Shown here piece after piece: positions 54,756 through 56,606 of a stretch of 64,000 bases of DNA. Every line of letters begins with the position of its first letter. Position 1 is the first letter of the stretch. Source of the stretch: Candidatus Hydrogenedentota bacterium (GTDB lineage: Bacteria > Hydrogenedentota > Hydrogenedentia > Hydrogenedentales > SLHB01); contig BTVY01000013.1 in NCBI GenBank assembly GCA_045863335.1, forward strand, positions 72,612 to 136,611, in the 5' to 3' direction. The notes under the pieces are model-generated. The model did not search any database and was not told the DNA's origin. It saw only the letters and a program-made list of their open reading frames with translations. The position numbers were made by a program, and so were the translations under genes.

Positions 54756-56606
54756 TTAGCGGCCGCCGCCGGCGCAGGCGCAGGCACAGGCGCATCCCGC
54801 GCAGGCGCAGGCACAACCGCCTCCGCCTCCACCGCCGCGTCCACCGCCACTTTCGGCGAGCGCCTTGAGCACTTCGCCGGTGAAGCGGTCGACGCCGGAC
54901 AGATCGATCCCGCTTTTGGTGGTGGAGGATAGCACATCCAGGCTGTTTGCGAGGTTGCTGGACATGCCTTCGAACCGGCCCACGAGCGAGCTGGCCACGT
55001 CGCCGAAGGAGGTCGAAGGCGAGGTCCGGCTTGGCGACGGTAGAGAGCTTCCACCTCCGCCGAACGAGGGTCTGGGCCCATGGCTGTGCCCGTGGCCGAT
55101 CCACCAGCGGGGGTGGTAGGGCACGTCGACCGTGGTATCCCGGAGCTTGCGGTCCCAGGAGTCGTCCATCATAAGCCAATCGAGATGATTGTCGAGGCGA
55201 TCGTAGCGCGCTTCATACCCCGCCTCCTTCTCCACCATGGTCCACGCGCGCGTAACGATACTGCGGTAGTATTCGCGCGTGCCCTTGACGTCGAAGTCTT
55301 TCATGGATTTCACGACGCGTTTGATCAAGGTGTCGAACGCGTCGTCGAGTTTCATATCCTCCACAGCCTTGTCCGATTGCGCGTGAAACGCTTTCAGGAA
55401 TGGGAACTCATAGGGCCAAATCTTCACGTCAAGACCGTCGGGACGTCTCCACTTGCGGTCCGTCTGGCGCGATCCCACGACGGCGATACGCAAGGGGTCC
55501 TCTTCGCGGACCTCGATGAGCTGCTTTTTGGCGAGCCCGAAGATGACCATGGTGAGAATCTTGTTCAGCGGTACTTCGAGCAGGACGGCCGCCTCGACCG
55601 CCGTCAGGCCGCGCTTGAGTCCGCCTCCCTCGCGACACAATTCGGCGGGGAAGTAGTTTCGTTTCCGCCGTTGTCGGGACCAATACACGAGGAGCGCGAA
55701 AACGATCATCGCAGGGTAGAGCCAGAGGTGAAAGACAGGGCTCTGGACCATCCCGTAGATGAATCCGGCGAAGGCGATAACGTAGAGCGTCAATCCCGTG
55801 CCGCGCGTCAGAACCATGAAGCACATGGTGAAGATGAAGAGCACGATGATGCCGCTCACGAATTGGGCGTCGCCGCTGCCTTCAAACCAGCGCAGGAAAA
55901 GGGCAAATATGGAGTCTTTTCGCACCTTGCTGACGAATCGTTTTGGAAACGACACGCCGTACTCGTGGGGCATGGTGAGCCGCACTGTCTCGACCCAGGC
56001 CACGGACACGAACTCCTCGCCTTCCATGACGCCCTTCACGTCGAAGTCCTGGCCCTTTTTCTGCCAGAGGATGCGATCTTTCACCGCAGGGTATTCCTGC
56101 TCCGGAATGGGCAGGATGTATCGAAGGGTCAAGCTCGTACTGCCATGGAGGAACTCCGCGCCGAACCAGGTGGGCGTAAACCGGAAGGACGCTTGCTCGG
56201 GATCGGTGGTGTCCTGCCAGACCATATCCCGTTCCCGCGCGGTGAACTCGAATACCCCCGTCTGACCCGGCTGGATGGCTCCCTGGCCGAGATGGATTTC
56301 GTATCCCGACCCGCGGGGTTCCAGGTAAGTGGAGACGCGCACATTGTTTTGCGGTATCGGCTTGCCATTCATCGTTGCAGTTCCCGGCGTGTGGCTGGAG
56401 AGATTGGGTAGGCCAATATCGACAATGTCGATGGGGTGAGCACCCGCCATGCACGAGAAGGTAAGCCGGTAATGGATTGTCGCAGATCCATCCGCCTCGA
56501 TGGTTACCGTGACGATCGCTTCCGGCACGGTGAATCGGTAGTTCTGCGCATCCGCGATGCCGGCGAATGCCGCCAACACAACGAGCGCGAGGGCAAGACG
56601 ATTCAT
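54756..56606 (-). CDS. Membrane protein (DUF2207-like architecture) with C-terminal poly-Gly/Cys-Ala repeat tail
   Basis: Signal peptide, exported beta domain, three TM helices then RQRRKR, cytoplasmic domain, tail GGGGGGGCACACAGCACACACAGGGR. Confidence 0.85.
   Translation of the reverse strand: MNRLALALVVLAAFAGIADAQNYRFTVPEAIVTVTIEADGSATIHYRLTFSCMAGAHPIDIVDIGLPNLSSHTPGTATMNGKPIPQNNVRVSTYLEPRGSGYEIHLGQGAIQPGQTGVFEFTARERDMVWQDTTDPEQASFRFTPTWFGAEFLHGSTSLTLRYILPIPEQEYPAVKDRILWQKKGQDFDVKGVMEGEEFVSVAWVETVRLTMPHEYGVSFPKRFVSKVRKDSIFALFLRWFEGSGDAQFVSGIIVLFIFTMCFMVLTRGTGLTLYVIAFAGFIYGMVQSPVFHLWLYPAMIVFALLVYWSRQRRKRNYFPAELCREGGGLKRGLTAVEAAVLLEVPLNKILTMVIFGLAKKQLIEVREEDPLRIAVVGSRQTDRKWRRPDGLDVKIWPYEFPFLKAFHAQSDKAVEDMKLDDAFDTLIKRVVKSMKDFDVKGTREYYRSIVTRAWTMVEKEAGYEARYDRLDNHLDWLMMDDSWDRKLRDTTVDVPYHPRWWIGHGHSHGPRPSFGGGGSSLPSPSRTSPSTSFGDVASSLVGRFEGMSSNLANSLDVLSSTTKSGIDLSGVDRFTGEVLKALAESGGGRGGGGGGGCACACAGCACACACAGGGR

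Follow-up and report, generated by a model that had tools for sequence, protein, structure and literature searches.

Radical S-adenosylmethionine (SAM) maturases with a SPASM domain are known mainly from short secreted peptides, and the enzymatic formation of thioethers on whole proteins has, to our knowledge, very few examples (QHNDH and, in 2026, CrpA). In quinohemoprotein amine dehydrogenase (QHNDH), the radical SAM/SPASM enzyme QhpD makes Cys thioethers inside a protein subunit, QhpC, in the cytoplasm, with Asp and Glu side chains as the acceptors, and this small subunit is later exported. CrpC of Methanococcus voltae, according to its description, which also names QHNDH, installs ranthionine-type thioethers, including those at ACAGM and PCAGD, on the 28.8-kDa Cys-rich CrpA, a soluble protein that has an N-terminal leader of 47 residues and ten copies of a 17-residue motif (PMC13692751). 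Here we analyse a 64,000-nucleotide stretch of DNA (hereafter the window) from a Candidatus Hydrogenedentota bacterium (assembly GCA_045863335.1, contig BTVY01000013.1, positions 72,612 to 136,611), in which the gene for a 616-residue predicted membrane protein with an alternating Cys-Ala tail (the tail protein, P0001; 54756..56606, on the minus strand like all cassette features given below; single copy in the genome) adjoins that for an enzyme (P0002, 56611..57978) which Pfam resolves into a PqqD-like RRE (the recognition element for peptides that are made on the ribosome and modified after translation, RiPPs), a radical SAM core and a SPASM domain. By analogy, CrpC/CrpA is the closest characterised counterpart of this pair. 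We lean, with somewhat more confidence than doubt, towards a tail that is a protein-borne, RiPP-like substrate of the adjoining enzyme, most likely crosslinked by thioethers, with the product staying on the protein.

The tail has the form (CA)3-G-(CA)4-GGGR and, by sequence and homolog comparison, makes up residues 598-616 at the extreme C-terminus (54759..54815), where the window translates to CACACAGCACACACAGGGR ahead of a TAA stop at 54756-54758. It follows a Gly-rich spacer, GGGRGGGGGGG (residues 587-597, 54816..54848), which is disordered in the AlphaFold2 (AF2) model, so that the whole C-terminus reads GGGRGGGGGGG-CACACAGCACACACA-GGGR-stop. Seven of the ten Cys of the protein sit within the tail and three elsewhere. 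The codons of the Cys-Ala stretch are exactly those given in the original prediction, TGT GCC TGC GCC TGC GCG GGA TGC GCC TGT GCC TGC GCC TGC GCC, a mixed string in which Tandem Repeats Finder picks up nothing beyond a degenerate repeat of 6 nt (54767-54812; score 44, with 74% matches).

The residues of this tail are under far tighter constraint than its codons. A word-indexed search in which 8000 candidates were scored returned 804 proteins at E<=0.001, and among the best 120 of these, within which whole-protein identity to the tail protein drops to ~35%, 117 end exactly in CACAGCACACACAGGGR; the three deviating endings are one C>W, one R>A and one truncated fragment. In a 40-sequence alignment (A1), with a mean column identity of 44% over the whole protein, C600-G615 is the only long invariant block. 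Thirty-three genomic copies with the CACAGCACACACAGGGR ending show synonymous variation at every position of the tail and zero residue changes, and between them they use both Cys codons, each of the four Ala, four Gly and six Arg codons and each of the three stop codons. Because codons vary among genomes while residues stay fixed, a pure DNA microsatellite is ruled out, and the proposal of selection at the protein level, together with the conservation of the tail on which it depended, is well supported by the homolog C-termini. A sequence that stays constant letter for letter across phyla, at an overall identity of about a third, implies that an enzyme or a partner recognises it exactly.

What variation the tail does have lies in the number of its units. 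More than 607 stretches match the tail peptide patterns, and 271 encode relatives of the tail protein (tblastn; one genome per species); those beyond the 271 could be GC-rich repeats with no relation to the family, or different proteins that bear this tail. Seventy-eight loci were kept from the 271, and tails were tallied for 76 of them and the window. Among these 77 tails, (CA)4G(CA)3 is found 35 times, (CA)3G(CA)4, the form of the window, 20 times, (CA)2G(CA)4 13 times, (CA)5G(CA)3 six times and (CA)3G(CA)3 three times, and GGGR closes all of them. The CA units before the Gly differ in number even among close relatives (three in the window and two in L003, three in L023 and two in L014, elsewhere four or five), and the half after the Gly is constant within each clade of the radical SAM enzyme; the portion closest to the C-terminus seems to be the one that matters most. 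The single Gly shifts the register, and therefore the seven Cys would not all fall on one face of a continuous strand, as had been supposed from their alternation. The only other architecture seen is that of P0135 (336 residues, on a 3.2-kb contig), with an alpha-L-fucosidase-like N-terminus (PF01120) fused to the pre-tail module and a (CA)4G(CA)4 tail, probably an assembly chimera or a frameshift.

The enzyme gene ends 4 nt before the start of the tail-protein gene. Its ATG at 57978 is preceded by GGAGGA, and the open reading frame (ORF) also opens at a TTG at 58023. The RRE (PF05402, residues 63-121) scores 27.5 bits against a cut-off of 23.4 bits, the radical SAM core (PF04055, residues 157-313) has an E value of 8.9e-22, and the SPASM domain (PF13186, residues 385-444) scores 41.5 bits against a cut-off of 21.5. 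In 29 orthologs the Cys of the CxxxCxxC motif (C161, C165 and C168) are invariant, as are C371, C385, C403, C440, C443, C449 and C453 of the SPASM region, where C393 is conserved in at least 90%. As far as sequence can tell, an RRE, a CxxxCxxC motif and a full SPASM domain together are the build of thioether-forming peptide maturases, and among relatives of solved structure the sactisynthase SkfB ranks best (6efn, E 7.2e-23). The enzyme stays under the curated cut-off of all the 25 best of 62 matching NCBIfam models (the 25th at 60 bits).

Enzyme and tail also agree in their history. In a maximum-likelihood tree of the 29 orthologs (of 32 references, three with stops outside the ORF were left out), one change is enough to account for the last half of the tail, which is G(CA)4 or G(CA)3 (support 99/97). 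Chloroflexota lie on both sides of this split, and the tail type therefore follows the lineage of the enzyme and not that of the host. This match is consistent with co-evolution, with the reservation that linked genes are inherited together and so give no independent proof. A predicted complex of the enzyme with residues 515-616 of the tail protein, SAM and three 4Fe-4S clusters (score 0.02, mark 0.32) speaks neither for nor against binding.

The association of the two genes is widespread. They belong to a four-gene unit on one strand, in the order Zn-ribbon protein, radical SAM enzyme, tail protein and methyltransferase, and among the 78 loci, which span Hydrogenedentota, Armatimonadota, Chloroflexota (including the cultured Bellilinea caldifistulae, L019, and a Herpetosiphon), Planctomycetota, Myxococcota, Zixiibacteriota, Cloacimonadota and others, at least eight phyla in all, the radical SAM enzyme is found in 70, the Zn-ribbon protein in 61 and the methyltransferase in 49. 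The enzyme is missing from eight loci, and in five of these the contig breaks off on the side where it would be expected. Most cassettes carry a second gene resembling that of the enzyme, a catalytically dead paralog without CxxxCxxC (for example, L007:5553-6998 and L019:10014-11279). With Z for the Zn-ribbon protein, R for the radical SAM enzyme, d for the dead paralog, T for the tail gene and M for the methyltransferase, the commonest orders are Z-T-R-d-M with (CA)4G(CA)3 (13 loci) and Z-R-d-T-M with (CA)3G(CA)4 (10 loci); the window and its near relatives L002-L004 have Z-R-T(-M) and no dead paralog. A search for the paralog in the 99.4%-complete genome matched only the active enzyme, which must therefore suffice alone in this lineage. 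Within the phylum of the window, the tail protein occurs in 9 of 121 genomes (3 of 62 genera), and the same nine have a match to the enzyme of 448-677 bits on the same contig, adjoining the tail gene; the other 12 matches to the enzyme among the 121 genomes, at 253-278 bits, belong to another paralog group. This patchiness inside the phylum and the wide spread across phyla suggest a mobile accessory cassette.

For the tail to be a substrate, it has to lie where the enzyme is, and the predicted topology would put it there. The AF2 model of the tail protein, built with a 40-sequence alignment (mean pLDDT 78.9), begins with a helix (residues 2-20) that ends at a conserved A-x-A-Q-N-Y site and continues with a beta-sandwich (25-221), assigned, with hhalign and Foldseek, to a signal peptide (1-20) and an exported domain (21-225) that resembles the N-terminal part of DUF2207 (55932..56606). 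An amphipathic helix (233-243) leads into three membrane helices (245-267, 272-288 and 290-313; 55668..55874, from DSSP on the AF2 model and hydropathy) and the RQRRKR stretch. Next comes a predicted cytoplasmic globular domain (317-500, 55107..55658), with a winged-helix-like start and then a helical part, of which 336-491 is folded in the model; this domain folded alone reaches a pLDDT of 90.7 and a pTM of 0.87. The C-terminal 110 residues are of low confidence and the tail is disordered. A crude count over 76 homologs gave one helix in 39, three in 26 and two in nine, with two fragments. By eye, seven of the nine two-helix cases are one strong helix plus a weakly hydrophobic segment, one has three helices with one under the threshold and one is a truncated ORF, leaving no clear even number among the 76. 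In the single-helix relatives, the 15 residues before the helix hold a mean of 0.5 Lys plus Arg and those after it 4.5, the net positive charge being greater after the helix in 38 of 38. Because the N-terminal domain is exported, the helix count is odd and the single-helix relatives are positive after the helix, the C-terminal domain and the tail are predicted to be cytoplasmic, as had been proposed. Neither the radical SAM enzyme nor the SAM methyltransferase has an export signal, and in this model the tail would be within reach of an Fe-S enzyme. A signal-peptide regular expression run over the locus ORFs matched 29 of 69, with uncertain ORF starts, and was not used as a measure.

Ahead of the spacer lies a conserved pre-tail module (residues 519-586, 54849..55052), a candidate recognition segment delimited in alignment A1. 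Its motifs, which lie 30-80 residues upstream of the tail, centre on TSFGDVA and DLSGxDRxT; no variation is seen at L569 or D573, and S570, T576, V537, S540, G543 and E546 are at least 90% conserved. AF2 draws helices at 534-559 and 570-586 with low confidence. The pattern fits the suggestion of an internal leader, for which a role in recognition would be plausible on sequence grounds. The Gly spacer noted along with it is present in all aligned homologs, Gly/Ser-rich and of variable length, and the HGHSHG motif also mentioned there is kept in close relatives only (40-sequence alignment).

On this basis we propose that the enzyme would dock on the conserved segment ahead of the Gly spacer, much as a RiPP maturase docks on a leader peptide, and would modify the Cys of the tail. 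The likeliest products would be intramolecular thioethers of the sactionine or ranthionine type, in which the sulfur of Cys is bonded to carbons of adjacent Ala or Gly; the methyltransferase encoded downstream could add a tailoring step, the Zn-ribbon protein with its two transmembrane helices could be the membrane partner, and the modified product would remain attached to the protein. A more specific version, in which the enzyme, together with tailoring by the methyltransferase, matures the tail into a covalently crosslinked, sulfur-rich structure tethered to the membrane protein at the inner face, so that a RiPP-type modification serves as a built-in prosthetic or signalling element and not as a secreted product, should be held only tentatively. 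It is possible that the Zn-ribbon protein is an alternative substrate.

Several observations weigh against a thioether-bearing tail made by this enzyme. Ala and Gly are not the usual acceptors of ranthionine bonds, and Cys-x-Cys runs are also typical of metal-thiolate proteins. The NCBIfam scores of the enzyme are spread evenly over families of different chemistry (PqqE 113.6 bits, NirJ2 106.8, AhbD 105.5, GeoRSP 103.6, SkfB 91.7, with a haloarchaeal pseudo-SAM family also within 90-114 bits), and therefore homology does not fix the reaction. In three loci (L054, L072 and L076) the expected side extends for at least 2.3 kb without a match to the enzyme. The pre-tail segment and the tail are of low confidence in the AF2 model. 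Finally, relatives with three transmembrane helices are rich in Lys and Arg before the first helix as well (a mean of 5.2, against 4.7 after the third), and because such stretches flank both the first and the third helix the positive-inside rule is ambiguous for the tail protein alone; the signal peptide, the three helices and the RQRRKR stretch of the original prediction are all found in the AF2 model, and the topology is based on the signal peptide, the number of helices and the single-helix relatives.

One alternative is a tail that is left unmodified, with its Cys-x-Cys pairs acting like those of a metallothionein and binding Fe-S clusters or metal ions on the inner side of the membrane, and with the radical SAM enzyme, its paralog and the Zn-ribbon protein loading or sensing the site or acting on another substrate. 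Six to eight Cys in C-x-C spacing on a flexible Gly tether, conserved in number and spacing, do resemble metallothionein motifs, and a cassette partner carries a Zn ribbon. Metal-binding Cys clusters, however, usually tolerate variation between their Cys, and here the Ala, the Gly and the terminal GGGR are as invariant as the Cys, which simple ligation would not require; the RRE and SPASM build of the enzyme, moreover, points to a peptide substrate. We therefore regard metal binding by a bare tail as improbable, mindful that the authors of the CrpA work also suspect metal binding by their protein (PMC13692751). Rather similar doubts attach to the idea that the enzyme does act on the tail and performs another chemistry: epimerisation to a segment of alternating D and L residues, oxidation of Cys to formylglycine or dehydro-residues, C-C crosslinks, or S- or C-methylation with the help of the methyltransferase. 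The strict two-residue period would suit an enzyme that acts on alternate positions, this enzyme matches SPASM families of many chemistries with about equal scores, and a methyltransferase accompanies the tail in 49 of 78 loci, yet the single Gly breaks the perfect alternation and the C-x-P/A-x-R context known from anaerobic sulfatase maturases is absent from the tail. Cys-rich cores beside RRE-SPASM enzymes have so far turned out to carry mostly thioethers (PMC13692751 includes such a case), and we consider one of these other reactions to be unlikely.

It is far less probable still that the 600-residue protein is a giant leader, whose modified tail is cut off and released as a small peptide or cofactor in the manner of the precursors of pyrroloquinoline quinone (PQQ) or mycofactocin. 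The position of the motif at the extreme C-terminus would allow it, and PqqE is the top NCBIfam match of the enzyme, with the mycofactocin maturase at 76.6 bits, but these matches are far under their cut-offs (381 and 265 bits, respectively), the cassette neither encodes nor conserves a protease, a peptidase or an exporter among the 78 loci, and the remainder of the protein is well conserved and folded. As to another substrate, the genes of the Zn-ribbon protein, the enzyme and the tail protein abut or overlap, which leaves no gap in the operon where a separate precursor ORF could fit. Nor did a short precursor on its own turn up among the short proteins inspected: in a search for proteins of 30-337 residues with the tail module (query residues 515-616), those inspected among the best 120 of 223 matches were contig-end fragments and internal-Met calls of the same family, except for the probable chimera P0135 and a protein with an odd N-terminus (P0210).

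The bearer of the tail is itself a divergent protein. No Pfam or NCBIfam family matches it above cut-off (a match to LIC_10190 is sub-threshold), and its profile (A1) has no match among the PDB sequences at E<=1. In the ESM Atlas it lies beside unnamed Chloroflexota-rich clusters and clusters of DUF2207 proteins (scores 0.96 and 0.93). The genome encodes one ordinary DUF2207 protein (124 bits to PF09972), which ends in poly-Gly and then Trp, with no Cys, and hhalign aligns the profile of the tail-protein family with it over 184 columns of the N-terminal domain (probability 88%, E 2.8e-6). The exported domain is probably, on this sequence comparison, a remote relative of DUF2207. Direct matches at E<=1 are few: PF09972 is found in 3 of 40 family members (best E 0.0086), the tail protein itself being unmatched, and PF20990 in 2 of 40 members and in 3 of 35 domain cut-outs (best E 0.002). 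When the complete model is searched by Foldseek, it retrieves only the generic N-terminal beta-sandwich of M1 aminopeptidases and oligosaccharyltransferase subunits (E ~5e-8). The two families share a signal peptide, an exported beta-sandwich, transmembrane helices, a cytoplasmic part and a Gly-rich C-terminal tail; they differ in that the tail protein has no Pfam match and that the ordinary DUF2207 protein of the genome lacks both the Cys ending and an adjoining radical SAM gene. The tail protein is, in all likelihood, a divergent DUF2207-type protein of the inner membrane or envelope whose usual Gly tail would have gained a Cys-Ala ending.

The cytoplasmic domain, in a full structural scan, comes closest to GOLPH3 (3kn1; Z 6.7 over 152 aligned residues, root-mean-square deviation 4.0) and Vps74 (2zih, Z 5.8), ahead of a Z of 3.8 in the row that follows, and by Foldseek it retrieves nothing at E<=0.001. 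The likeness to GOLPH3/Vps74, which rests on a model, is a lead only. The fold of a eukaryotic Golgi protein would be unexpected for a membrane-proximal domain in a bacterium, and no sequence support for it was found in Pfam, where the families listed include no GPP34 match. As a further observation, in L082 (G000:C26) the DUF2207 ORF of the genome (1414-3336) overlaps by 4 nt the end of another ORF (92-1417), which by eye looks like a mechanosensitive channel.

Among the remaining members of the cassette, the Zn-ribbon protein (57972..58319) has 115 residues, two transmembrane helices and a C-terminal CxxC...CxxC zinc ribbon with a weak match to the HVO_0758 zinc finger (E 1.6e-5), and its gene overlaps the start of that for the radical SAM enzyme by 7 nt. 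The product of the last gene (53990..54625), which lies 130 nt downstream of the tail gene, is a class I SAM-dependent methyltransferase (PF08241, E 2.4e-15), with the DVU_1556 family as its best NCBIfam match (59.8 bits against a cut-off of 155 bits). The 130-nt spacer (54626-54755) contains three hairpins, one directly after the stop of the tail gene and two that are near-identical copies built on GGCCTTCCAGGCC, and Tandem Repeats Finder places a 15-nt repeat at 54654-54706. After the methyltransferase gene comes a long palindrome of a similar kind (53940-53990), and the hairpins around this gene may be elements of the repetitive extragenic palindromic (REP) type or attenuators. A scan of 53800-58800 for promoters and terminators gave counts that are not above those of shuffled sequences. 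The other neighbours in the window that were tested (an aminotransferase, a serpin-like ORF, two secreted or outer-membrane ORFs and one further ORF) occur in none of the 78 loci; the serpin-like ORF (415 residues with a signal peptide, 49550-50797, minus strand) resembles a bacterial serpin by eye.

Some sequencing data bear on expression. In an RNA-labelled run (X3), a near-identical contig covering 54933-56849 bridges the junction between the genes of the radical SAM enzyme and the tail protein, and a second one, covering 57389-58500, bridges that between the Zn-ribbon and radical SAM genes. No long contig of X3 reaches the tail, the larger share of the methyltransferase gene or a portion of the radical SAM gene, and X20 and X21 contributed small pieces only; these gaps carry no weight either way. 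We take this as a weak hint that the cassette is expressed, since such libraries may hold DNA and a contig does not equal a single transcript. Near-identical DNA was also present in a sludge metagenome run of another study (X2).

The tail protein has no model in Pfam or in NCBIfam release 20, and full-text literature searches returned no description of the motif, of a Cys-Ala repeat or of DUF2207 with radical SAM; string matches were DNA primers, and a broader RiPP query found only the CrpC paper and general RiPP papers. Three text files of the supplements of PMC13692751 contain no occurrence of the motif or of DUF2207, and the set of CrpA-like proteins in the remaining file could still list the family. 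Taken together, the locus suggests that a complete membrane protein bears, on its tail, a chemical modification of an undescribed kind. If the tail is indeed modified, it would represent a new class of substrate, possibly with a new chemistry on Ala or Gly acceptors, and would give the first functional handle on a large and uncharacterised family of DUF2207-type envelope proteins. The system is small and directly testable, with four genes, a soluble C-terminal fragment and a cultured carrier in B. caldifistulae.

How far this locus departs from the described systems depends on which of them it is set against. With the maturases of sactipeptides and ranthipeptides (SkfB, AlbA, CteB, PapB and StsB) it shares the RRE-radical SAM-SPASM order and a Cys-rich core at the C-terminus, and the models of SkfB, AlbA and StsB match the enzyme at 71-92 bits, far under their family cut-offs; those systems, however, act on short exported peptides and come with proteases and transporters, whereas here a membrane protein of 616 residues is accompanied by neither. 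QhpC differs from the tail protein in having no Cys-Ala repeat and no membrane anchor. TIGR04463, the CrpC family, is absent from the 25 best of the 62 NCBIfam matches of the enzyme. The CrpC/CrpA pair nevertheless has the most in common with it: an RRE, radical SAM and SPASM enzyme, an adjoining substrate that is a whole protein, C-A-G contexts, a product that stays a protein and a function that may involve metal (PMC13692751), the substrate in our case being a candidate. The differences lie in the partners, which are a Zn-ribbon membrane protein and a methyltransferase here and CrpB there, and in the substrate, which would here be a single 19-residue tail at the C-terminus of an integral membrane protein that has only three other Cys.

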